Below the pieces are notes generated by a model. The model was given only the letters and a program-made list of their open reading frames with translations. It did no database searches and had not been told where the DNA came from. A stretch of 64,000 nucleotides of DNA from IMG/VR virus record IMGVR_UViG_3300001199_000003, positions 58,537 through 122,536 of that record. One strand, given 5' to 3'. Both the position numbers and the translations under genes were made by a program. Numbering within the stretch: the first letter of the stretch is position 1; the number at the start of each line of letters is the position of its first letter. Shown here in pieces: positions 9,504 through 60,693 of the stretch. Source of the DNA: a virus. Taxonomy: Duplodnaviria; Heunggongvirae; Uroviricota; Caudoviricetes.

Positions 9504-10475
9504 ATGAAAAACGCACTTAAATTTACACTGAGCTTGATGCTCGTTGCCTTTATGGTAGCGGTTCCTGCTCAAGCAGGGGCGATTAAAAAGATCGTTCTTA
9601 CTTCAGACAATACACTCAGTCTTAATGATGCTGTTACTGGCGCTTCAGTTGCTGAAGTTATCACTAAAGCTAAAGAACTGGACAGTAGCTTTGGTGTTTA
9701 CGCCACTATTACCGGCAAGAAAGATATCTATTTTTATCTTCGCACTCCAGGTGGATCAATTCAATCCGGCCTTGAGATGTTTGAAGCTCTTAATGGCCTT
9801 GATCGTCCAGTTCACACTATTACTAGCTTTGCAGCTTCTATGGGTTTCCAGACGGTTCAAAACCTTGGAAAACGCTATATTGTTAAAAGCGGTGTTTTGA
9901 TGTCCCACAGAGCGTCAGGTGGATTTGAAGGATCATTTGGTGGACAAAAACCGAGCCCAATGGACTCTCAAAAGAACTTCTGGGAACAACGTCTTCACGA
10001 AATGGATATGAAAACCGTAGAGCGCACTAAAGGTAAGCAAACTCTAGCTTCTTACCAAGCTCAATACGCTCCTGATATGTGGTTAACCGGTACTCAAGCT
10101 GTTGAGCAAGGATATGCTGACGAAGTTGTTCAAGTTCAGTGCGATTCATCTTTGGCCGGAGTGACTACTAAATCTGTGAATTTCATGGGTTTAATCAATA
10201 TCAACTACGACCTTGATAATTGTCCTTTAAATTCTACTCCAATGAATATCCGTATTTCTCGTATCGCTACCAATAAAGGTGAAATGGACTTTAATAAGTT
10301 TCAAGCTGCTGGCGGCGGATACGGTGTTGACTGTCTAATCGCTTCTGGTACTGATAAAACTAAGGTTTGTGCTACTAACACTTCCCTTAATGCTGAAAGA
10401 ATATATGGTCTTAAAAATGAATTCCGTAATTACTATATGGATATTAAAGGCCAAGTAAAGAACTTCAGATATTAA
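9504..10475 (+). CDS. secreted ClpP-class (S14/S49-like) serine protease
   Basis: N-terminal signal peptide MKNALKFTLSLMLVAFMVAVPAQAG. ClpP-type active-site block ITSFAASMGF. Four cysteines in the C-terminal part. Confidence 0.45.
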   Translation: MKNALKFTLSLMLVAFMVAVPAQAGAIKKIVLTSDNTLSLNDAVTGASVAEVITKAKELDSSFGVYATITGKKDIYFYLRTPGGSIQSGLEMFEALNGLDRPVHTITSFAASMGFQTVQNLGKRYIVKSGVLMSHRASGGFEGSFGGQKPSPMDSQKNFWEQRLHEMDMKTVERTKGKQTLASYQAQYAPDMWLTGTQAVEQGYADEVVQVQCDSSLAGVTTKSVNFMGLININYDLDNCPLNSTPMNIRISRIATNKGEMDFNKFQAAGGGYGVDCLIASGTDKTKVCATNTSLNAERIYGLKNEFRNYYMDIKGQVKNFRY

Positions 10476-17659: not shown

Positions 17660-18107
17660 GATTTGCACTAAATGTCTGTTCCCTAAAGGAAAGGAGCAAT
17701 TTGCGCCTCATGAATCCTATAAGGACGACTACACTACTTGGTGCAGAACATGCCTAGGGTTACAAGCTTCTAATTGGAGTAAAGAAAATGCCGAACAGCG
17801 ACGTGAAAATCAAAGAAATTTGAATAAACGTAAGCCAGAAGCTAAGCAAAACTCTAAACTTAAGCAGCGATACGGTATTTCATTGATTGAATTTAGCGAG
17901 ATGTCTTTAAAACAGCAAGATAGATGCTTAATATGTGATAAACATAAGTCTGAGAATAAGAATGGAAAATTATTCGTAGACCACTGCTATTCTACTCAAA
18001 AAGTTAGAGGACTTCTTTGCAATGATTGCAATAAAGGTATAGGATTGTTTATGGACAATCCAGATTTATTAATGAAAGCCGTGGAGTATTTAAAAGCGAA
18101 TGGTTAA
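17652..18107 (+). CDS. endonuclease VII (T4 gp49-like) HNH resolvase
   Basis: N-terminal Cys pairs. VDHCYSTQKVRGLLCNDCNKGIG matches the Endo VII DHxxxTGxVRGLLCxxCN signature. Confidence 0.6.
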   Translation: MDKICTKCLFPKGKEQFAPHESYKDDYTTWCRTCLGLQASNWSKENAEQRRENQRNLNKRKPEAKQNSKLKQRYGISLIEFSEMSLKQQDRCLICDKHKSENKNGKLFVDHCYSTQKVRGLLCNDCNKGIGLFMDNPDLLMKAVEYLKANG

Positions 18108-18110
18108 AAC

Positions 18111-18515
18111 ATGGACAAAGCCACGGAAGATCTCAATAAATACAGTCACGTTTTATTGGATGCCCAGGTAAAACTTCAGACTATACAAGCGCACATATTG
18201 AAGATCGACAAAGATCTAGCAATGTTGACGATGGTAGAGGCAAATTTAGAAGAAAATATTAGGGTTCTAAAAAGAAGACGTGCTATAGTGATGGCTAGTG
18301 AGTTTAAAAAGTCAACAAACGACTTAGATACTTGCAGAACCAGAATGGCTTTTTTAAGAGTAGAGCGAGAAACTGTCGTTAAAAATGAAACGCAAGCCGA
18401 CGGCATCTATCAGAAAGCGCGGGAAGAGTACGAAAGACTTCTTTATTTAGTCCATAACCCGCCGAACAATGTTCTTTATGTAGATTTCGGGAGAAAAGAT
18501 GACGGACAAGAATGA
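18111..18515 (+). CDS. hypothetical coiled-coil protein
   Basis: Track ORF. Confidence 0.45.
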   Translation: MDKATEDLNKYSHVLLDAQVKLQTIQAHILKIDKDLAMLTMVEANLEENIRVLKRRRAIVMASEFKKSTNDLDTCRTRMAFLRVERETVVKNETQADGIYQKAREEYERLLYLVHNPPNNVLYVDFGRKDDGQE

Positions 18516-18720
18516 ATTACAAGAAAAAGTGCAGACGGAAGAGGATTATATCCGTGCCCCGAAATATTCAAACTCTTTGAATAAATTTGTGGCTCATAAC
18601 TCAGATGGCGTAGAGAACGCTACTATCGCAAGACTATTAATGATCCCTGAAGATCAAGTCGAAGAGATCTATCAAGAAGCGATTGTTAAGCTGAGAGAGG
18701 GCATGGTAGATGAAGATTGA
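18499..18720 (+). CDS. hypothetical small protein
   Basis: Track ORF with an HTH-like segment. Confidence 0.4.
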   Translation: MTDKNELQEKVQTEEDYIRAPKYSNSLNKFVAHNSDGVENATIARLLMIPEDQVEEIYQEAIVKLREGMVDED

Positions 18721-19267
18721 AGTCTACAGTGACGGATCAGCTACCATAGCCACTAAGCCTGGAGGATACGGATACGTGATCGTTATTGATGGCGTAAAAG
18801 TAGACGAAGGCCATGGTCACATGGAAAAGGCTACCAATAACGACGCAGAGCTAGAGGCAGCCATCCAAGGTTTGGCCAAAGTTCTGAAGATGCGAATTGA
18901 CGGTCAGATCCCTATCGGTACACACGAAGTCTTCCTAGTCTCGGATTCCCAGATCATACTTGGCTGGGCTGACGGCACTCAAAGATTCAAACAACAGAAT
19001 AAGATGGCTAAATATCACCAACTTCAACATGTTATGAGGAAGTTGAATGCTAAAACTCGTTGGGTTCGTGGTCATTCTGGCGATGAACACAATGAGCGCT
19101 GCGATAAACTAGCTAATCTAGGTAGAAAAATGTACGATGAGCCAAAAGAAGTTGTTGCCAAACCTAAGCCAGTTAAGGTATCATTAGAAAGCTTGCAGAA
19201 ACGTATTGAAGCGCTTGAGCTTGAAGTTAAAACCTTGCAACGGCAAAGATCAAACCCATTAGGATGA
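18710..19267 (+). CDS. rnh: ribonuclease H
   Basis: VYSDGS, DAELEAAI, VSDSQ and VRGHSGDEHNERCDKLA match the RNase HI catalytic motifs. Confidence 0.7.
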   Translation: MKIEVYSDGSATIATKPGGYGYVIVIDGVKVDEGHGHMEKATNNDAELEAAIQGLAKVLKMRIDGQIPIGTHEVFLVSDSQIILGWADGTQRFKQQNKMAKYHQLQHVMRKLNAKTRWVRGHSGDEHNERCDKLANLGRKMYDEPKEVVAKPKPVKVSLESLQKRIEALELEVKTLQRQRSNPLG

Positions 19268-19274
19268 TTTTTAT

Positions 19275-20198
19275 ATGATTAAAATTGGGTCACTTTTTAG
19301 CGGTGTTTCAGGCTTAGAGCTTGAGCTTCTAAAACGTCCAGATTTTGAGCTAGTATTCGTGGCAGACCCTGATAAGTTCTGCTCTCAGGTTTTGGCTTAC
19401 CATCATCCTAGGGCTCGCAATTTAGGATCTGTGACAGAGGTCGATTACAATACTGTCCCTGATTGTGACATGATCATGGGCGGAACCTCTTGTCAGAACT
19501 TCTCTTATCAAGGCGACAAGAAAGGCCTAGAGGGCGTGAAGTCTAAACTGTTCTATGATTTCGCAAAAATCATCCAGTTTAAGCAGCCTAAATATGTAGT
19601 TTGGGAAAACGTATTTGGGGCCTATACTCACAGTGATTTTCAAATTGTAAAGGAAATATTCAATGAAATCGGATACGAAATCGACTACGGTATCTTTAAC
19701 TCAGCAGTCTTTGCAAGAACAATTCAGCAACGGCAGCGAATCATCCTCCTTGCCACGCGTAAAGACCTTAACCAAGTTAGACTTGATCGCACAATACCTA
19801 GTCTCGAACTCGGTCAAGAGATGCAAGATCTCCAAAAGCGACTGGTCGGGGTTAGCAAGTCTCATCGAGAAGAAAAAGTAGACAGAGAAGGAAACATCAT
19901 CGAAGAAGGTAAGATCGAGGTTCGTTTGAACCATGGCTTAGCCAATACTCTTGTGACTGGATGGGGATGCGCCGGAGTTAGCACTAAAAACTACACCGTA
20001 GGCGAAGATGGCACTTTAAGCGAACTTACCGTCAACGAAGCAGAACTTCTCATGACTTGGCCAAAAGATTGGACTAGGTACGGTTTTAAAGATGGAGAAG
20101 TTGTTGAGATACCTACTGCTCAGCGCTATAAAATGTGCGGAAACGGTGTAGTGTCTGAGGTTGTTGGAAACATATTTAAAAATTTGGAGTTAGTATGA
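19275..20198 (+). CDS. DNA cytosine-5 methyltransferase
   Basis: Motif I FSGVSGLE, motif IV GGTSCQNFS (TSCQ where the canonical motif is PCQ), motif VI WENV. Confidence 0.65.
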   Translation: MIKIGSLFSGVSGLELELLKRPDFELVFVADPDKFCSQVLAYHHPRARNLGSVTEVDYNTVPDCDMIMGGTSCQNFSYQGDKKGLEGVKSKLFYDFAKIIQFKQPKYVVWENVFGAYTHSDFQIVKEIFNEIGYEIDYGIFNSAVFARTIQQRQRIILLATRKDLNQVRLDRTIPSLELGQEMQDLQKRLVGVSKSHREEKVDREGNIIEEGKIEVRLNHGLANTLVTGWGCAGVSTKNYTVGEDGTLSELTVNEAELLMTWPKDWTRYGFKDGEVVEIPTAQRYKMCGNGVVSEVVGNIFKNLELV

Positions 20199-20369
20199 AA
20201 CAAGATATCGCAGATGCCTTGCAGGAAGCGACAGATTTACTTACAGAAGCGTTAGATTTACTATCAAACGCTGGACCTAACCCTCTTTGCATTAGTGAAA
20301 CTGAGTATTACGACAGATTAGATAAGCTTAGAGAAAATTGCGGAACAGATATAGACGAGGAAGAATAAT

Positions 20370-21014
20370 ATGAGTCAACTTTATATGCCGTGGGATACAG
20401 AGACTGGTGGATTAAACGAAAATACCGCCGATCTTCTAACTGGTTATTTTTGTATCATGACTGAAGACTATCAGATCCTGGACGAATTGGATCTGAAGCT
20501 TAAACCGGACGGTGGCCGTCTTCCTATTGCTGAAAAGGGCGCTCTTGATGTTAATAAAATCAATATCGCTGAGCATTTGGCTAATCCAGCTACCGTGACA
20601 TACTCTGAAGGCCGAGCACAGCTCCAGGCTATGATTAAGAAGCATCTTAAGCGTAATGGTCGATATTCAAACATAACTCCGATGGGATATAACTGCCCTT
20701 TCGATATTCGCTGGACTCAGAAACATCTTTTTGAGCAGGATCTTTGGCAGTCACTTCTTCATTATAAGAACCATGACGTTATGGGTGTCGTAGATACTCT
20801 TAAGAAATACGGTCTTTTCCCTAAAACTTTAGGATCTCTATCTTCGGTTGTTGAGTACCTTGGCGTACCTACCCGTGGCGCGCACAATGCCAAAGAAGAT
20901 ACTTTGATGACAATTGACGTTGATAAGAAGCTTGCAGAATTCTTTAAGAGTCTGAAAGCTGGCGGCGGAGCAGGTGCTGGAACGGATCTAATCACCCTTT
21001 TAGAGGCGGAATAA
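20370..21014 (+). CDS. DEDD-family 3'-5' exonuclease (DnaQ-like)
   Basis: WDTETGGL exo motif I and C-terminal HNAKEDTLMT (HxAxxD motif III). Confidence 0.55.
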   Translation: MSQLYMPWDTETGGLNENTADLLTGYFCIMTEDYQILDELDLKLKPDGGRLPIAEKGALDVNKINIAEHLANPATVTYSEGRAQLQAMIKKHLKRNGRYSNITPMGYNCPFDIRWTQKHLFEQDLWQSLLHYKNHDVMGVVDTLKKYGLFPKTLGSLSSVVEYLGVPTRGAHNAKEDTLMTIDVDKKLAEFFKSLKAGGGAGAGTDLITLLEAE

Positions 21015-39016: not shown

Positions 39017-39739
39017 ATGACTACTGAATCGAACCATAAATTAGATAAAAAGATTAAAGCGAAGTCCGACGACCACGTCTGGCACGTTCACGAATATGAC
39101 GTAGATTTGCAATCTAACCACATATACTTGATGGGTATGGAAAGCTACGCTGCGGGACATGAAGAGATGATCGGTGAGCCAGGAGTTGAATACTCCATGG
39201 CCAATAGATTCATCCGAAACTTGAACATCTGTATGCGTGCTAATCCAGATAAGCCTATTGTGATCCACATGAAAACCTGTGGCGGTCTGTGGGAAGAAGG
39301 CATGGCGATTTATGACGCGATTAAGTCGTGTCCAATGCCTGTAACTATCTTAAACTACACACATGCGCGTTCTATGTCGAGTCTGATCTTCCAAGCCGCT
39401 AATAAGCGTGTTATGATGCCCCATAGTTACTTCATGTACCACGATGGCACTTTGGCTGTAGATGGTACGACTAAGACGGTGATTTCTAATATTGAGTTCA
39501 CACAGAAGGTCAGCCAGGCAATGCTTGACATCTATGTTGATTCGATGAAGCTTTCTGGCAAGTACAAAAATCGTTCTCGTAAATGGCTCTACGCTTACCT
39601 GCGTGAGCAAATGGACAAGAAAGAAGACGTATTCGTAGTAGCTAAAGAAGCTGTGGAACTAGGATTTGCTGACTCAGTGTTTGATTACAACTGGGCTAAA
39701 CTGACCGATTACACTCAAGAAGAATTAGCTAGAGGATAA
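39017..39739 (+). CDS. ClpP-like (S14) protease
   Basis: IVIHMKTCGGLWEEGMAIYDAIK...ARSMSSLIF...MYHDG parallels ClpP INSPGG...AIYD...AASMGS...IHQP. Confidence 0.55.
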   Translation: MTTESNHKLDKKIKAKSDDHVWHVHEYDVDLQSNHIYLMGMESYAAGHEEMIGEPGVEYSMANRFIRNLNICMRANPDKPIVIHMKTCGGLWEEGMAIYDAIKSCPMPVTILNYTHARSMSSLIFQAANKRVMMPHSYFMYHDGTLAVDGTTKTVISNIEFTQKVSQAMLDIYVDSMKLSGKYKNRSRKWLYAYLREQMDKKEDVFVVAKEAVELGFADSVFDYNWAKLTDYTQEELARG

Positions 39740-41733: not shown

Positions 41734-41936
41734 GTAAAGAAATTATTGTCCCGATTTGCTGGTTAAATGGTGGAAATATGATTGATCGGGATACCCTCCC
41801 TTCAGATCACCCAGAATCCATGTACGGTTACATTAAGTATTCATTGAAGCTAAGACCGGAAGATTACGGTATCTATACCGATAAACAGATCGCAGAGAAT
41901 AAAATCAAACAGAGTGAAGAACTCGCAAAACACTAG
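41730..41936 (+). CDS. hypothetical protein
   Basis: Track ORF. Confidence 0.4.
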   Translation: MSKEIIVPICWLNGGNMIDRDTLPSDHPESMYGYIKYSLKLRPEDYGIYTDKQIAENKIKQSEELAKH

Positions 41937-42939
41937 CATGGAGACGGACATGAGTGAACTAGATGATGCAGCAGAGTGGGCCTCAGCGGCAGAAAACTTT
42001 GATGGCGATAAAAACGAAGGTAAGCAAAGTCTAAGAGGCAGCGCTCCAGACTACGATGATGACGATGACACGACTAAGAATCCTGGACAGCCGAATCAAT
42101 ACGCTCTATATGGAGCTGGCTACATGGCTACAACACCTACTATCAAATCGTTAGTAGCTGGCTGTTACGATATCCAAGCCGATAACCGTGGCGTATTCGT
42201 GGTTCCGGCATTACCTCCATCTGGGATTCTATTAGAGTTACCGGAAATGAGATCCGATGAAGTAATCCGCGTAGTGGATAACTTTTGGAACTCTGAAGCA
42301 GACTATAAAGATGGAAACGATTTCGTAGTAGGTGGCGCACAGTTCAAAGCTGGTGTGATGATCTACGGTCCTCCAGGATCAGGTAAGTCGTGTACGATTA
42401 AGATCGTATCTAAGAAACTAGTTGAAAGAGGTGGAACAGTATTCTTCAGTTCTGGCCACCCATCTAACACAATGCGTTGGTTGGAAGATTTCGCTAGAGT
42501 TGAGCCAAACAGAAAGTGCATTGTTATTTTAGAAGATATTGATAGTTTGATCCATAACTATGGTGAATCGAACTACCTAGAGATGTTAGATTCGGCCAAA
42601 ACGATTAATAATGTCTTGTTTATTGCCACGACGAACTATCCTGAGCACTTAGATCCTCGTATCTATAACCGTCCAGGTCGTTTTAGCCATGTAATTAAGA
42701 TCGGTCTTCCAGTTCCTGCGACTCGCGAAGCTTACCTCAAAGCGATCCTCAAGAATCACCAGGATGTTGAAGAGATCGTTAAAGAGTCTGAAGGCTTCAC
42801 AATCGACCACTTGACCGCGTTGGTTAACGGTGTGTATCGTGAGAAGAAAGACCTCAAAACCGAGCTTAAACGCCTCCGTACACTGTTTAAAGTACCTAAA
42901 GGTAGCGATAAGCCTGCTCTGGGGCTCAGCAATGGGTAA
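41914..42939 (+). CDS. AAA+ ATPase
   Basis: Walker A GVMIYGPPGSGKSCT and Walker B VIVILEDIDSL. Confidence 0.65.
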   Translation: MKNSQNTSMETDMSELDDAAEWASAAENFDGDKNEGKQSLRGSAPDYDDDDDTTKNPGQPNQYALYGAGYMATTPTIKSLVAGCYDIQADNRGVFVVPALPPSGILLELPEMRSDEVIRVVDNFWNSEADYKDGNDFVVGGAQFKAGVMIYGPPGSGKSCTIKIVSKKLVERGGTVFFSSGHPSNTMRWLEDFARVEPNRKCIVILEDIDSLIHNYGESNYLEMLDSAKTINNVLFIATTNYPEHLDPRIYNRPGRFSHVIKIGLPVPATREAYLKAILKNHQDVEEIVKESEGFTIDHLTALVNGVYREKKDLKTELKRLRTLFKVPKGSDKPALGLSNG

Positions 42940-44021: not shown

Positions 44022-44142
44022 AGAAAAGAACGAAAAAAGCTATAAAACAGATAACTAATCCTAGACTTAAATAGTCAAAGCGTGATATGGTTAGGATAGC
44101 TAAATTTGTAGAGAGATTTAAAGAGATAATTAAATAACTTAT

Positions 44143-44568
44143 GGGGGCGCGTAGTTTCGACAGGGGAACGGAGAACGAAAGGTGCAAGACGTGGAAGGGA
44201 TGAAGGCCACGTAAAAATCATTCCAATTTTATACGGCAACGTAGAAGAAAAAATGGCTGCTTAATTCCCTCACGGGAATGGCGCTTGAGGTGTTTGTCTA
44301 CCGATAACAACAAAGGCTACCATGGCTGTATCTCAGAGCCAACCCTAAGGGAGAATCTGATTAGTTTGTTCATTCTTAAAATGAACTGGTGGACGGTAGT
44401 CTTGGTGAGTAACCTTGGCAATCCCACGAGGCTGATCGACACTCGTTAAACGACGATTACGCCGCAAGGCAAGAGTCACTCAACTCTCTAATCATGGGTC
44501 AATCTTGTGCATGACCTTAGTTTGATGATCTTTTGGACGCGGGGGGCGGCTCCCCGCCGCCTCCACCA
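44143..44568 (+). ncRNA. ssrA: tmRNA (SsrA-like transfer-messenger RNA)
   Basis: The 5' GGGGGCG pairs with the 3' CGCCUCC as a 7-bp acceptor stem with a G3:U70 wobble. T-arm GCGGGG/CCCCGC and a 3' CCACCA end, followed by a T6 run. The 5' UUCGACAGGGG segment resembles the tmRNA D-loop analogue. Internal frame GGC AAC GUA GAA GAA AAA AUG GCU GCU UAA at 44235-44264 encodes a tag ending in Ala-Ala-stop. Confidence 0.6.
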
Positions 44569-44574
44569 TTTTTT

Positions 44575-45229
44575 ACGAGTGCGCGCAGTCGCAGAAACGA
44601 GACACGTAAACACTGCGCTGACATCCAGCAAAGACTGGAGGGCCAGAGCCTCGGTAGCCCTAAACTATCCGAAAGCGTTAGTAGGTGCTTCCAGGGTCGG
44701 CTGAAGCTTAATGGCGCTACCGTCGTCGCCTACTTTTATTAAATTCAGATGAGCCGAAAGGCTTAAGCCGGTTTGGGCGAAAAAGGCTGAAACCCATTTA
44801 TGGTGGCTATGGTGTAACGGGTCGTAAGACAGGCACGGCGGTTTGTGGAACCGTTGGTGAGGTTTCAAATACCTCTAGTCACCCCATTTTTATGGCGAGA
44901 AATGATCAGATGATCAGGGGCGGTTCCTAATGGTATTTAGGGCCTCGAAAGTTCGGAGCGTAGTGTAGGTTCGAGTCCTACCCAACTTTCTCTAGTTCGC
45001 AGCTAGGCTCGCCACCTTTTAAATTTAAGTAAGCCGCAAGGCTTTGAGCCAGGGGAAGCTAAGGCTAAATCTTCCTAATCTTCATAGGGTGAGGTCTACG
45101 TGCCTGAGCGAAAGCTCGAATCCGATGGCTTGCTGTCTGGTCATGCTTTTAAAACGTAGAGAACCAGGCTAGTGTGGAAGTGTTGAAATAGGCAATAACG
45201 CAATAAAAATCACATTTCACAAATCCCAA
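44575..45229 (+). other. structured non-coding RNA region with tRNA-like modules
   Basis: No credible ORF. Repeated hairpins AGCC-GAAA-GGCT (44752-44763), AGCC-GCAA-GGCT (45032-45043) and GAGC-GAAA-GCTC (45106-45117). T-arm-like GAGGU-UUCAAAU-ACCUC (44859-44875) with CCA at 44884-44886. Second T-arm GUAGG-UUCGAGU-CCUAC (44965-44981). Confidence 0.35.
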
Positions 45230-45253
45230 CCCGCCTGAAAAGGCGGGTTTTTT
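45230..45253 (+). terminator. rho-independent terminator
   Basis: Stem CCCGCC, loop UGAAAA, stem GGCGGG, followed by a T6 run. Confidence 0.6.
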
Positions 45254-45302
45254 ATTTGACATCGAAATGAAGCTGAGATACTATTCCGCGTAAGAGGTTT
45301 TA

Positions 45303-45755
45303 ATGAAAATGATGTTTGCCGAAATATTCTTTCTACTTACGATTATTACTATAATCCACGAACTTGGTCACTTTCTTATGGCCAAATACTTCAAATTCAA
45401 TATAAAAGAATTCTCCATCGGTAGTGGATTTACGATCTTTGAGCAGAAAATAAAGAACACAATGCTTGTCTTAAAACTAGTCCTACCTTTGGGTGGACAT
45501 ATTCGTGTTGATTTTGAAGTCAATAAGTTCAAACAGATGGACGACAGAAAACTCTTAGGTATCATCTGCGTCTCATTAGCTGGACCATTCATGAATATTA
45601 TCGTGGCTTTACTTACTTTCCAATATAACTTTGCATTCGCCGCTATGAGTTTTCTTACAGGAATTACAAACCTTCTACCGTTCGATATGACCGATGGAGA
45701 TATAGCCTTGGGCGGCATTAGGGAATACCTTAAAAGACGTAAGGAGAAAGCATGA
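45303..45755 (+). CDS. minimal site-2 protease (M50 family intramembrane metalloprotease)
   Basis: First TM helix carries IIHELGHFLMAKYF (HExxH), as in RseP TVHEFGHFWVARR. FSIGSGF...LPLGGHIRV matches FSIGFG...IPLGGYVKM. C-terminal NLLPFDMTDGD matches the NLLPxxxLDGG motif. No PDZ domains. Confidence 0.55.
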   Translation: MKMMFAEIFFLLTIITIIHELGHFLMAKYFKFNIKEFSIGSGFTIFEQKIKNTMLVLKLVLPLGGHIRVDFEVNKFKQMDDRKLLGIICVSLAGPFMNIIVALLTFQYNFAFAAMSFLTGITNLLPFDMTDGDIALGGIREYLKRRKEKA

Positions 45756-55680: not shown

Positions 55681-56114
55681 ACGAAAAAATTATTTGCGTA
55701 GACCCAATTGAAGGCTACCTCACTAAAGGTAAAGAATACGAGTTCCAGAAGATCGAGTCATACGCTGGCAGAGCAGTGATCATCGACGATACTGGTCGCG
55801 AAGGCCACTATAAGCCTGAACGCTTTACTCTCTACGGAGAAAACCTGGAGCAGATGGTAAAATACTACAAAGTGAAGCTTACTCGCGTAAACTCTACTCA
55901 CCAAAACCTTCAAAGAGACGAAATGATGTGCCGTACAGGATTTAAACCTGAAGTTGGACATTGTATGTTCTTTTCAGGCGATTCTTTGGCCAAATATCAA
56001 GGTCCAAGCCTTATTCAGACGACTCCTGTGAAGGAAATGTCTTTCGACGAAAAGACCAATACTTATACGATCAAAACTAGAAACACCACTTACACGATAC
56101 AATATTATGTATAA
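55677..56114 (+). CDS. hypothetical protein
   Basis: Track ORF. Confidence 0.45.
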   Translation: MNEKIICVDPIEGYLTKGKEYEFQKIESYAGRAVIIDDTGREGHYKPERFTLYGENLEQMVKYYKVKLTRVNSTHQNLQRDEMMCRTGFKPEVGHCMFFSGDSLAKYQGPSLIQTTPVKEMSFDEKTNTYTIKTRNTTYTIQYYV

Positions 56115-57072
56115 CCTTGGCTGGGGGCAGTCAGTAGCAGTTAGAGAAGCTTTTGTAAAATTTTGCAAAAGCTCTACTGTCATCACACCACAGACGTTGA
56201 TGAAATACGACTATACTGGACATGAAGGCGAAAGAGCCCTAATTAGCATTACCGCCGATGTAATCATGAAAACGCTTGGACTATCTTACAAGCACATCTT
56301 CATCACTTCGGGGGCTACGGGCGGCTGCGTAATAGCAATGAGGGCTTATCGACAGTCAGGCTATTCTCACTGTCTTACTCGTCAAGCTCCATATTACGTT
56401 CGGTATCCTAAGATGATTGAAGCTTCCGGTCTGATCCATACTACGAATCATCTTAAAGAACGCCTAAACAGTGTAGCATTAGTAGATCTTCCTTCAAATC
56501 CTTTAGGATCTATGAAATCTCCAGTCGTTCTTGGAATACCGGTTATCTTGGACGCAGTTTACTTAAATCAAGTCTATATGCTTCCAGAACAGGTTAAGTG
56601 TATTCCACACGATGTTCTGGTAGGAAGCTACTCTAAATTGCTGGGAATTAACGGCATTAGACTGGGCTACATAGCTACAAATGAAGACTTATTAGCATCT
56701 AAAATATCGGAACTAATTACTTCCGAATATTGTGGGCTTTCAATGTCATCCCAGGACATTTTAATTGATCAGCTTCCTAATTTTGCCTGGGAAAGCTTCT
56801 TTCCTTATGCTCGCTTCAAGCTAGATATGAACCGTGAGCAATTCCAGAAGATCGAGAAGTTTTTCGGGGATACTCCCGTGAACCCTATTGGGATGTTCTA
56901 CTATGGGCCAACAGATCAAAAGACGAGGGAATTGTTAGAGAAATCTAATGTTCAATTTACGCCTGGATCGGCAATGGGAACTAGCGATGAGTTTGGACGC
57001 TTTAACTTGGGCCAAGATAATAGGTTGGTTGAAGAAGCCGTTAAGGCGATTTTGAAGGCAGATAAGATATGA
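56107..57072 (+). CDS. PLP-dependent aminotransferase (class I/II-like)
   Basis: VGSYSKLLGINGIRLGYIA matches the SxSKxxGxxGxRxGY Lys-PLP motif. Upstream TSGATGG. 321 aa, which is short for the family. Confidence 0.5.
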   Translation: MYNLGWGQSVAVREAFVKFCKSSTVITPQTLMKYDYTGHEGERALISITADVIMKTLGLSYKHIFITSGATGGCVIAMRAYRQSGYSHCLTRQAPYYVRYPKMIEASGLIHTTNHLKERLNSVALVDLPSNPLGSMKSPVVLGIPVILDAVYLNQVYMLPEQVKCIPHDVLVGSYSKLLGINGIRLGYIATNEDLLASKISELITSEYCGLSMSSQDILIDQLPNFAWESFFPYARFKLDMNREQFQKIEKFFGDTPVNPIGMFYYGPTDQKTRELLEKSNVQFTPGSAMGTSDEFGRFNLGQDNRLVEEAVKAILKADKI

Positions 57073-58377: not shown

Positions 58378-60693
58378 TTATTTACCGATTTTCTTGACTG
58401 TTAACTGTCTTAAAGTGTTAGTTCCTGTGTTAGCTGCCACAGACCAATAGGTGTCTATTTTATGAGAGCCTTTTGGTAAATATACAGGGACAGAAAAAGA
58501 GATTGGCACTTCTAATCCAGAAGATGGAGCGTTCATTCTATTAATTGTTTGAACTTGTTGCCCGTTTACGAAAGGAGCAATGGTCACAGCAACACCTGTA
58601 GTTGAGTTAAGGATCGCTCCATAAAAATTAATCTCTACCCATTCACCCTCAGACTCATAAGTCAAACTCATATCAGGCATAGGAACAAATGTGGTTGAAG
58701 TTGTAGTAGGATTTGAAGTAACGCCTACAGCTAATTTTATTTTAGCTTTATCTGATTGCTCAATTAAAGTTTCTCTAAGATCTCCGATAGCACAAGACCC
58801 AATAGGTAAATTATTTTGTACTGCAAGCTCGTCATATTTAGGAAAATAAACAGGAGTAATTATATCTAAAGCAGCGATTACAAAATTTGTACCAGCACCA
58901 TGAGTGAATCTAACAGTATGCTTACCAAGTGGAAGTCCAGTTAACGCCATTACGCCTTGGCCAAGAGCTGTGGCTCCGTTTAAGTTAAGGACGCCAGTTG
59001 AAGGAGTGAAAACAATAGCATTATCTCTAGTGGCTACTGCTGGGCCAGATCCAGTTGCTCCGCCTCCATTATGGGAGATGGTGAAATTAGCCGTACTTAA
59101 GGCTACGCCATCTATCAAAATAGAAGAACTTGTGGCTAAGTTTGTATCTCTGTAAGTACGCATGTTGAAACCAGTTCCGAAGAACGTAAATTCTGCGTAA
59201 GCACCTGCGGTTTGAGTAGTAACTGCGTTACCGGTAGAAACAGCTGTAGGGCTTTGACTGACTGACAGCCAAGTATTAACTAGGAGAGTTTCTTTAGATG
59301 AAGCTTTTTGTAGTACCCCCTGAGACATAGAATCGGTACTAAAAGCTGACATATAGCTATAGTCAGCCATTAAAAAATATTCACCAATTTCAACTGCGTT
59401 TGCAGGTAAAGCCGGTTTTTTAGGTTGATAGACGTTGAAACCAGCAACAAAAAGACCTACGCCAACCGCAGTTGTTCTTGTGATTTTAACCGTATGGGTT
59501 CCGTAAGGAAGTCCAGACACAATTTTAACGGTATTGTTTAATCCAGTTCCGAAATAAGAACTAAGACCAGTCCCAATAGATATACCGTCAACAGCAATAC
59601 TGAAAGTATCTGTAACGGCAGCTCCTCGGACGTTTATAATATCTAGACCAGTACCTACAAACGTAATGGTAAAAAAATCACTGGCAGCGTTAAGTCCAAA
59701 TCCCTCTACGGCAGTAATAAAACTAGCAGTTACCGATGTAGCAGATAAACTAGTAGTTCCATCGTTAAGAGTAAAAGCTCTTGCTGAAGGTGTGCTAGAT
59801 AAAGAAACAAAATCATCTGCGCGGTTAACCCCAAATTCACGGAAGCTGTACGTGCGAACCAAATCCTCATTCGCGTGATCAGCAGAACCTAAATTAGACT
59901 GTGAAGCAGCGGCTGGACTAATAGCCTTGCCGACAGTTCCGTCTGGTTTAAAATAAAGTAAAACTCGTCCACCAGTAGTACCAAGAGTTCCAGATTCAAA
60001 GCCAGAATTATAGGCAGAAGAAACAGCAGAGTTTAAGTTAAATTTTTGACCGTTTTTAAGCAACGATCCAGGTCTAATATTTAGCGTTGACGATTCATTA
60101 AGAACTTCAAACCCATATAAATTGAGATCTTTTGAGACAGTATTGTTGCGAATTCTAACTGTGTGTAATCCTAAAGATAGTCCAGAAACAATAGGCAGAA
60201 CAGTATTAGCGTTGTAGTTTCTAGAAACCAATAACCCAGAATAAGAGGCTGAAGCTAGGTTAGCCGTCTCAGCTCCACCGTCAATAGAAGCCACAATGTT
60301 ATGGGTAGCTGCGTTTAATATCAAATTAAGATTTAATCCAGTACCGTAAAAGGTAATTTCTATAAAATCTGTAATATTTAATCCAGAATTTACCCTAGAT
60401 CCAGCCGCATCATTAGCTGAATACCATGATCCAGCTAAACGAATCTGACCATAAAGATCTCCAACAATCCCAAAAACAGGCTGGCCAGTTGAAGTGGTTT
60501 CGTTCTGAATTTGATATAATCTTTGGCATGGAATACGTTCAACGCCAAATCTCATACTAATATCATTGGCCAAATCATTGATCTGGGCGCGATTTACGAT
60601 AGTCGTATTCGGAACAGAAATTTTGGACACAGAAAGTTTTTGGCCAGAAATCTTGCCGAATTGCTCTTGTACCGCAAAGCTTGTACGTGACAT
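58378..60693 (-). CDS. large virion structural protein, paralog B (tail fibre/receptor-binding-like)
   Basis: 771 aa. Shares multiple blocks with 61153..63738 (NTTIVNRAQ, FGxxRADDF...RAFTL, IVSGLPYGTHTV, YQPKKPA). Rich in Gly/Thr/Asn/Ser. Confidence 0.5.
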   Translation of the reverse strand: MSRTSFAVQEQFGKISGQKLSVSKISVPNTTIVNRAQINDLANDISMRFGVERIPCQRLYQIQNETTSTGQPVFGIVGDLYGQIRLAGSWYSANDAAGSRVNSGLNITDFIEITFYGTGLNLNLILNAATHNIVASIDGGAETANLASASYSGLLVSRNYNANTVLPIVSGLSLGLHTVRIRNNTVSKDLNLYGFEVLNESSTLNIRPGSLLKNGQKFNLNSAVSSAYNSGFESGTLGTTGGRVLLYFKPDGTVGKAISPAAASQSNLGSADHANEDLVRTYSFREFGVNRADDFVSLSSTPSARAFTLNDGTTSLSATSVTASFITAVEGFGLNAASDFFTITFVGTGLDIINVRGAAVTDTFSIAVDGISIGTGLSSYFGTGLNNTVKIVSGLPYGTHTVKITRTTAVGVGLFVAGFNVYQPKKPALPANAVEIGEYFLMADYSYMSAFSTDSMSQGVLQKASSKETLLVNTWLSVSQSPTAVSTGNAVTTQTAGAYAEFTFFGTGFNMRTYRDTNLATSSSILIDGVALSTANFTISHNGGGATGSGPAVATRDNAIVFTPSTGVLNLNGATALGQGVMALTGLPLGKHTVRFTHGAGTNFVIAALDIITPVYFPKYDELAVQNNLPIGSCAIGDLRETLIEQSDKAKIKLAVGVTSNPTTTSTTFVPMPDMSLTYESEGEWVEINFYGAILNSTTGVAVTIAPFVNGQQVQTINRMNAPSSGLEVPISFSVPVYLPKGSHKIDTYWSVAANTGTNTLRQLTVKKIGK

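Follow-up and report, generated by a model that had tools for sequence, protein, structure and literature searches.

A probable phage-encoded, one-piece tmRNA with a lengthened T-arm in a lineage of large uncultured phages

Does a tailed phage known from metagenomic sequence carry its own trans-translation RNA, and can an RNA whose T-arm departs from the usual form be accepted as such? The question is raised by a segment of 426 nt at positions 44143-44568 of a 64,000-nt stretch of viral DNA (hereafter the window; positions 58,537 to 122,536 of IMG/VR record IMGVR_UViG_3300001199_000003), itself part of a 171,229-bp metagenomic contig. A sequence-only reading of the window had proposed a transfer-messenger RNA (tmRNA, or ssrA) gene at this position and had named an Rfam covariance-model search as a check. 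The Rfam model RF00023 returned an above-threshold match with identical coordinates on the plus strand (75.4 bits, gathering score 47, E value 1.8e-27), and this match spans the entire model, positions 1-374 of 374. The tmRNA gene is in one piece, is 426 nt long, and encodes its own CCA. No match to the permuted (two-piece) models RF04321 and RF01849 was reported in the window, and a permuted tmRNA is ruled out by the standard order of the pieces and by the end-to-end match to RF00023. In a permissive Rfam scan of the region from 42 to 50 kb the only significant match beyond the tmRNA was a tRNA at 44803-44883. We consider that the segment very probably represents a functional, phage-encoded, one-piece tmRNA, and we place the probability of this reading at roughly 85%.

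The one-piece assignment is made because the covariance-model match is joined by comparative support, from five related phages, for all of the expected elements: acceptor stem, helix 2, a first pseudoknot (PK1), tag frame, post-tag hairpin, three more pseudoknots (PK2 to PK4), and T-arm. Homologues of an M50-like gene of the window (65-72% identical) led to four syntenic contigs, L036 (139 kb), L037 (131 kb), L039 (59 kb) and L040 (8 kb), and the tmRNA was found at the same locus in all four, with about 72% nucleotide identity. The relatives' genes score 78.5 bits (L036) and 79.6 bits (L037) with Rfam, and those of L039 and L040 were located by BLASTN. Two more contigs end within the tmRNA gene, keeping just its last 33 nt. 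The five full-length tmRNAs show a mean identity of 83% per alignment column. Overall, both the structure and the coding frame of the tmRNA have been kept under constraint in a sub-clade of large uncultured phages. Two further contigs found via an AAA ATPase gene (L001 and L002) were rejected as relatives, since they share that gene only and are not syntenic, and exact-pattern scans of IMG/VR and a metagenome collection with the family 5' 24-mer, the 3' 34-mer and an invariant 20-mer returned nothing. The elements of the gene are as follows.

44143..44149, plus strand: 5' strand of the acceptor stem, GGGGGCG; G3 of the G3:U70 pair is 44145; 7/7 pairs, invariant in five sequences
44150..44160, plus strand: D-loop analogue CGUAGUUUCGA, aligned to the RF00023 consensus ..GGaUUCGAC and family-invariant but for one position
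44161..44188, plus strand: 5' strand of helix 2 (sub-helices 2a-2d), paired with 44504-44535
44189..44224, plus strand: PK1, in H-type order; stem S1 44189-44194 with 44207-44212, stem S2 44197-44203 with 44218-44224
44235..44264, plus strand: tag reading frame GGC AAC GUA GAA GAA AAA AUG GCU GCU UAA, at the RF00023 tag position
44264..44279, plus strand: post-tag hairpin (helix 5) AUUCCC-UCAC-GGGAAU, paired in 5/5 sequences
44289..44316, plus strand: small hairpin GGUG/UACC with one compensatory pair (U-A to G-C), then an A-rich block, CCGAUAACAACAAAGG
44351..44386, plus strand: PK2; S1 44351-44356 with 44372-44377, S2 44368-44371 with 44383-44386
44426..44458, plus strand: PK3; S1 44426-44430 with 44442-44446, S2 44434-44438 with 44454-44458
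44461..44470, plus strand: GNRA hairpin GCC-GCAA-GGC between PK3 and PK4, which flips to GGC-GCAA-GCC in L036 and L040
44472..44499, plus strand: PK4; S1 44472-44476 with 44483-44487, S2 44478-44482 with 44495-44499
44504..44535, plus strand: 3' strand of helix 2, partner of 44161-44188
44539..44557, plus strand: non-canonical T-arm; stem GCGGGG/CCCCGC, 44539-44544 with 44552-44557, and loop GGCGGCU, 44545-44551
44558..44568, plus strand: 3' strand of the acceptor stem CGCCUCC, discriminator A, and CCA; the U70 equivalent is 44562
44569..44574, plus strand: U-run past the 3' end, read from the sequence

The two ends of the molecule define its tRNA-like part. The split alanine-type acceptor proposed from the sequence was recovered as described, with GGGGGCG (44143-44149) pairing with CGCCUCC (44558-44564), G3:U70 included, and with ACCA at 44565-44568; both G3:U70 and ACCA are invariant across the five sequences. 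The proposed 5' D-analogue is likewise borne out by RF00023, which aligns GUUUCGACAGGGG to its consensus gGaUUCGACggg, and the gene thus combines a D-analogue aligned to the model consensus (GUUUCGAC) with a long helix 2. This helix comprises 21 pairs, of which one is compensatory (A-U to G-C, 44175/44521), and has a single broken cell, in helix 2c of L040. The U-run that had been seen after the 3' end consists of six U, and a terminator-like hairpin (44542-44564) is possible from the T-arm and the 3' strand of the acceptor.

Single-sequence minimum free energy folding of the central region gave inconsistent structures and recovered no pseudoknots, and comparative analysis was therefore needed. 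In the comparison of the five related phages, the pseudoknots expected between the tag and the T-arm do form. Where the MAFFT columns are unambiguous, 51 proposed pairs are 99.6% paired, and sliding the 3' partners by 1-3 columns lowers this to 42-58%; the covariation score is 0.106, compared with 0.049 for shuffles, of which none in 500 reached it. In the indel-rich central region the helices were assigned per sequence and afterwards checked by script, and strand homology in PK2 was assigned by structure rather than by MAFFT columns. The resulting structure-guided tally of 17 helices, four H-type pseudoknots included, has 434 of 435 cells paired in the five sequences, a percentage that is partly so by construction given that the helices of PK2 to PK4 were chosen by eye in each sequence. 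All 17 helices occur in the expected order in each sequence, and the sole mismatch is the one in helix 2c. Compensatory changes are present in 28 of the 87 pairs, and slid controls give 1-2. It is these compensatory substitutions at homologous strands, and not the pairing percentages, that constitute the real evidence for PK2 to PK4.

The pseudoknots differ in how freely their strands have changed. Stem S1 of PK1 is invariant and stem S2 is compensatory in four of its seven pairs (GGGAUGA/UCAUUCC, UGAUCGA/UCGAUCA and UGAUCUA/UAGAUCA). PK2 keeps the H-type order in all five sequences and is compensatory in 8 of 9 compared pairs, PK3 alternates between ACGAG/CUCGU and AGGAG/CUCCU in one stem and between GAUCG/CGAUU, UGCCG/CGGCA and UGUCG/CGACA in the other, and PK4 shows three variants of S1 (AGAGU/ACUCU, UGGUC/GACCA, UGGAC/GUCCA) and three of S2 (ACUCA/UGGGU, ACCUG/CAGGU, AUCCG/CGGAU). 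Compensatory pairs in PK2 to PK4 total 19. A long-range helix enclosing these three pseudoknots (AGCCUG/CAGGUU in L036) was dropped, as PK4 accounts for those bases in all sequences. A classical pseudoknot right after helix 5 was not established; this segment reads as a nested hairpin with an invariant A-rich strand after it. The strand in question, CCGAUAACAACAAAGG (16 nt, 44301-44316), is identical in all five tmRNAs despite variable surroundings, and a search for its pairing partner found none.

The internal reading frame carries a second type of constraint. The tag-like frame GNVEEKMAA-stop that had been noticed at 44235-44264, ending in Ala-Ala, coincides with the position at which RF00023 places the tag; its resume codon is Gly (GGC), its stop is UAA, and helix 5 begins at the final base of that stop codon. 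The frame has no start codon, ends in a hydrophobic residue followed by Ala-Ala, and stops at a hairpin, with Gly replacing the commoner Ala as resume codon. Several groups of bacteria are known to use Gly as the resume codon. The relatives encode the tags GNEERMAA (L036, L037 and L040) and GNEEKMAA (L039), where the differences amount to an in-frame 3-nt codon indel, a synonymous GAA to GAG change and an exchange of Lys and Arg, and all five finish with AUG GCU GCU UAA. Variation of this kind is what a translated frame should show. Ahead of the resume codon the sequence is UAUAC in the window and UAUUC or UAAUC in the relatives, so U and A at positions -5 and -4 are kept in 5/5 sequences, in agreement with the UAGUC context of Escherichia coli.

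The T-arm is the element that fits least. The sequence-only reading had described a complete acceptor/T-arm module, and of this description the acceptor stands and the canonical T-arm does not: in place of a 5-bp stem with a 7-nt UUCRANY loop, there is a 6-bp stem with the loop GGCGGCU. Compared with the T-arm of E. coli, GCGGG-UUCAACU-CCCGC, the phage arm is longer by a G-C pair, and its loop does not have the customary U (position 1) and A (position 5). The stem covaries within the family, with two compensatory pairs (G-C to A-U; G-C, G-U and A-U), and the loop is either GGCGGCU (window and L040) or UGCGACU (L036, L037 and L039). A pattern with the stem fixed and the loop left free retrieved 32 IMG/VR contigs, with loops UGCGACU in 21 and GGCRGYN/GGCGGUA in 11. 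Every loop seen has G at position 2 and C at position 3, with either U/A or G/G at positions 1 and 5, a pattern which suggests that the contact between positions 1 and 5 may be maintained by a different pair. At the tested IMG/VR loci with the 6-bp arm, Rfam calls full one-piece or permuted tmRNAs, often amid large phage tRNA arrays.

The same arm also occurs in cellular genes. A scan of one genome per prokaryotic species found it, with loops KGCGRCU, in eight genomes, all of them metagenome-assembled genomes (MAGs) of Bacillota (Clostridia and Limnochordia). The eight tmRNA genes (L043-L050) are full tmRNAs of 91-171 bits, each adjoining smpB and each with an ordinary tag, for example ANNQYALAA. 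Because eight smpB-adjacent chromosomal tmRNAs with ordinary tags share the 6-bp arm, this T-arm is compatible with normal function. It is natural variation inside the tmRNA family and not a ground for exclusion. Furthermore, the G/G loop is the known alphaproteobacterial type, with the sixth stem pair as an added variation: the consensus loop GGCgGUA of the alphaproteobacterial/permuted model RF01849 shares with the window the pattern G-G-C-R-G and the G at loop positions 1 and 5, whereas that type has a 5-bp T-stem and a two-piece gene and ours a 6-bp stem and a one-piece gene. At only about 50% identity to the phage gene, the Bacillota genes point to neither a donor nor a host.

One check named by the sequence-only reading came out negative. 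ARAGORN reports no gene in the window or in the region at default settings, and relaxed thresholds give spurious calls only, so the tmRNA gene is not reported at either setting. The T-arm alone as the cause of this miss was refuted in silico, as a canonical arm did not restore detection; the gene was detected only when a canonical T-arm was combined with a change of the resume codon GGC to GCA. With both edits, ARAGORN reports a tmRNA from 44143 whose tag, at tmRNA positions 93-122, has the frame and coordinates given above. For 10 of 11 other one-piece genes with the 6-bp arm (7/8 cellular, 3/3 viral) normalising the T-arm suffices; L049 was tested and remains undetected, and the test left out L005 and L030. 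The one-piece tmRNAs with a 6-bp T-stem that ARAGORN leaves unreported are L004, L005, L017, L020 and L030 in IMG/VR and L043-L048 and L050 among the Bacillota MAGs. ARAGORN finds five permuted tmRNAs with the 6-bp arm and none of the one-piece ones. It has been reported that 402 of 18,146 phage genomes carry a tmRNA in an ARAGORN census (PMC9004378). Published counts of phage tmRNAs (about 2% of genomes) that are ARAGORN-based miss this class and so are too low. Consequently, covariance models should accompany ARAGORN in tmRNA annotation. The natural covariation data of the unusual T-arm could in addition help to explain recognition of the tRNA-like domain by SmpB and EF-Tu.

How does this molecule compare with tmRNAs already described? 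With the standard one-piece tmRNA, SsrA of E. coli, it shares the alanine-type acceptor, G3:U70, ACCA, the UUCGAC D-analogue, the long helix 2, PK1 before the resume codon, a start-less tag ending in a hydrophobic residue and Ala-Ala, a stop at a hairpin, and three downstream pseudoknots. It differs from SsrA in being 426 rather than about 360 nt long, with additional hairpins in the helix 5-PK2 and PK2-PK3 intervals, in its 6-bp T-stem (not 5), its GGCGGCU loop (not UUCRANY) and its Gly (not Ala) resume codon, in a tag that ends in MAA and not LAA, and in being carried by a phage with no adjacent smpB. The Bacillota genes are alike in being one-piece, in a 34-nt 3' end made up of GGAC, a 6-bp T-stem, a 7-nt loop (G2, C3) and a 7-bp acceptor, and in being missed by ARAGORN until, for seven of the eight, the T-arm is normalised. 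They differ in being cellular and smpB-adjacent, with an Ala resume codon, tags such as ANNQYALAA, ANDQYALAA and others, a length of 345-362 nt, scores of 91-171 bits, and only about 50% identity to the phage gene.

The sequence-only reading had called a phage-borne tmRNA uncommon, and so it is, yet the phenomenon is documented, both by the census cited above and by the phage entries of a tmRNA database that covers RefSeq viruses (PMC11915505). Earlier phage tmRNAs resemble ours in being complete genes of lytic-looking phages that lie among other small RNA genes, and no phage smpB has been reported for them (PMC9004378, PMC11915505). The ssrA of OM43 phage Melnitz is in two pieces (PMC9004378), whereas the window gene is in one piece and not permuted. 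The window gene differs from the earlier phage examples in being invisible to ARAGORN, in having no nucleotide similarity to GenBank phages, and in belonging to a lineage whose nearest cultured member is Mx1. Phage tmRNAs are thus already known, and what is unusual here is confined to the lengthened T-arm and the Gly resume codon, which jointly hide the gene from ARAGORN. What is gained is the extension of ordinary trans-translation to one more phage lineage, one without cultured close relatives.

The surroundings of the gene are those of a large phage. The window consists of densely packed short open reading frames (ORFs) on the same strand and encodes a portal protein (781-2655), a DnaE-like polymerase, a DnaB-like helicase, other helicases, a primase, SbcC- and SbcD-like nucleases, a T5 A1-like DNA transfer protein and a tail fibre. 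Within the 64 kb the tmRNA is flanked on either side by phage hallmark genes, and the locus is not a prophage-host junction. Nucleotide searches of GenBank phages, near and distant, gave no match for the window, and the sole GenBank relative at the protein level is Myxococcus phage Mx1, with about 33% amino-acid identity. The tmRNA sits in a 1.3-kb noncoding gap (44022-45302), together with a tRNA-His and other structured-looking RNA, and belongs to an accessory cluster of small RNA genes. In the more distant clade members L051 and L052, which were reached via a conserved aminotransferase, the surrounding gene order is kept but neither the noncoding gap nor a tmRNA is present at the locus. This identifies the RNA cluster as an accessory insertion belonging to one sub-clade.

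Several points weigh against a functional phage tmRNA and explain why our estimate is not higher. The evidence for function is that of sequence and comparison. The Rfam score of the phage tmRNA (75 bits) is far under those of the cellular tmRNAs that share its T-arm (91-171 bits), and the T-loop lacks the usual U54 and A58 (both are G), has G at 55, and closes a stem one pair longer than usual. Part of the pairing in PK2 to PK4, as said, reflects the choice of helices by eye. No convincing promoter was found directly upstream of the tmRNA. The gene is dispensable for the phage lineage, being absent from the locus in distant members. No SmpB was found in any frame of the 64-kb window or in the relatives' flanks (ten-sequence profile; best E value 1.3; control 8/8), but one could still be encoded in the other 107 kb or so of the phage genome. 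Presumably the tmRNA uses SmpB, alanyl-tRNA synthetase (AlaRS) and EF-Tu of the host for ordinary trans-translation.

Established trans-translation biology indicates how such an RNA might act. RNase P would trim the 5' end of the precursor, the 3' CCA being encoded by the gene, and the alanyl-tRNA synthetase of the host would charge the tmRNA by way of G3:U70 and the A73 discriminator. In the infected cell, host SmpB and EF-Tu would then bring it to ribosomes that have stalled on mRNAs that are broken or lack a stop codon; there the nascent chain would pass to Ala and translation would restart at GGC (44235). The protein would gain the C-terminal extension A-GNVEEKMAA, and UAA would stop translation and free the ribosome. 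The hydrophobic-Ala-Ala end probably sends tagged products to host proteases of the Clp or Lon type. The likely benefit to the phage is that ribosomes would stay available while host mRNA degrades or host tmRNA is limiting.

Could the RNA instead work against the trans-translation of its host? A mimic acting as a decoy would bind host SmpB, AlaRS or ribosomes and inhibit or divert the endogenous system, as is reported for the tag-less tmRNA-like RNA of mycobacteriophage DS6A, said to inhibit endogenous tmRNA on expression in E. coli (PMC11915505). The non-canonical T-arm and a covariance score under those of cellular tmRNAs are in line with such a role. A decoy would need no tag frame, resume context, PK1 or post-tag hairpin, yet all of these are conserved and the changes in the tag preserve the frame, and the same T-arm serves smpB-adjacent chromosomal tmRNAs. 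We consequently hold a decoy to be unlikely, and a functional tmRNA remains the better account of the locus.

A different possibility keeps the function and alters its meaning. The 13-bp acceptor/T helix, the switch at T-loop positions 1 and 5, and the Gly-resume EE[K/R]MAA tag could together mark a subclass of tmRNA specialised to phages. Such a subclass might, for example, be tuned to evade host nucleases or defences that target canonical tRNA-like T-loops; alternatively, tagged proteins could be routed to a protease under phage control, with a ClpP-family gene (39017-39739) and an AAA ATPase gene (41914-42939) lying a few kb upstream. Nothing in the analysis supports a functional link, ordinary cellular tmRNAs share the T-arm, and PHROGs calls the ClpP-like genes head maturation proteases. 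We think this specialisation quite unlikely and retain an ordinary tmRNA as our reading.

Could the gene be a decaying remnant of a host tmRNA, left by imprecise excision at an ssrA attachment site and without function in the phage? tmRNA genes are often integration sites and fragments of them are found in prophages (PMC9004378), and distant members of the clade are without the gene. The phage gene is, on the other hand, of full length and not a 3' fragment, and five diverged phages have kept it with the tag frame intact and with compensatory changes in 28 pairs; the evidence of purifying selection is strong. Its identity to the most similar cellular tmRNAs found is about 50%, hence it was not recently picked up from those species, and no integrase was noticed nearby in the gene list. 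A remnant is therefore highly improbable. That the contig is bacterial or a prophage region and the tmRNA the host's own is scarcely credible, for even though the origin of a metagenome assembly is inferred, the 64 kb are packed with small same-strand ORFs and phage hallmark genes, smpB is absent whereas 8/8 cellular loci examined have it next to ssrA, and related contigs of 131-172 kb share the gene order. Decoy, remnant and host gene are each less likely than a functional tmRNA.

The remainder of the noncoding gap holds further features.

44802..44886, plus strand: tRNA-His(GUG), RF00005 49.3 bits, a cloverleaf with G-1:C73 and encoded CCA
45228..45255, plus strand: strong intrinsic terminator that closes the RNA cluster and is conserved in relatives
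45256-45284, plus strand: promoter-like TTGACA-17-TACTAT ahead of the M50-family peptidase gene

The tRNA-His, which ARAGORN also missed, carries in its D-loop an extra GNRA mini-hairpin, GUC-GUAA-GAC, that covaries with GAC-GAAA-GUC in L040 (about 2776-2862). Directly 3' of the tmRNA, the segment 44574-44735 is 83-86% conserved over its first 50 nt or so in L040 (2315-2368) and L041 (377-420) and ends in a hairpin and a U-run; Rfam gives no match for it, and its folding z-score is -1.5. A multi-branched element of 119 nt at 44894-45012, closed by GGCGAG/CUCGCC and followed by ACC and a U-run, holds a perfect T-arm hairpin, GUAGG-UUCGAGU-CCUAC; the same hairpin forms the T-arm of a normal-looking tRNA in L036 (9085-9156), L037 (9740-9811) and L038 (554-625). 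The 119-nt element is not a cloverleaf, has no Rfam match, and has a folding z-score of only -1.4. The clusters of relatives include tRNA-like genes with large insertions (L039, about 2641-2731; L040, about 2436-2560 and about 2905-2990), in one of which an anticodon stem CCCUGU/ACAGGG surrounds a 26-nt loop with its own hairpin. Phages differ in the content of the cluster, and every RNA in it finishes with CC(A) and then a U-run.

Some protein-coding genes of the window and its relatives deserve mention. The ClpP-family gene, the AAA ATPase gene and an HD-domain gene lie near the tmRNA. A second ClpP-family gene occurs at 9504-10475 and PHROGs labels both as head maturation proteases; neither directly adjoins the portal gene, and the copy at 39017-39739 lies about 36 kb away among replication genes. 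Given this label and the second copy, a functional link between the tmRNA tag and the nearby ClpP-like gene is unsupported. Two genes were tried as clues to the host and rejected. The first, a class I/II aminotransferase (Aminotran_1_2 / Alliinase_C, 56107-57072), is a core gene of the clade with metagenomic homologues and is found in many uncultured phage-like contigs of 85-176 kb. The second, the M50 / site-2-protease-family gene (45303-45755) just downstream of the RNA cluster, has cellular homologues scattered across phyla; its product is very short (150 aa), whereas the cellular homologues have about 240-250 aa, and is 65-72% identical in the related phages. Lastly, L036 carries at 17748-20456 a diversity-generating retroelement with an RVT_1 reverse transcriptase, a bAvd gene and an mtd-like target gene, whose RNA (RF03022) scores 76.7 bits at 19726-19850.

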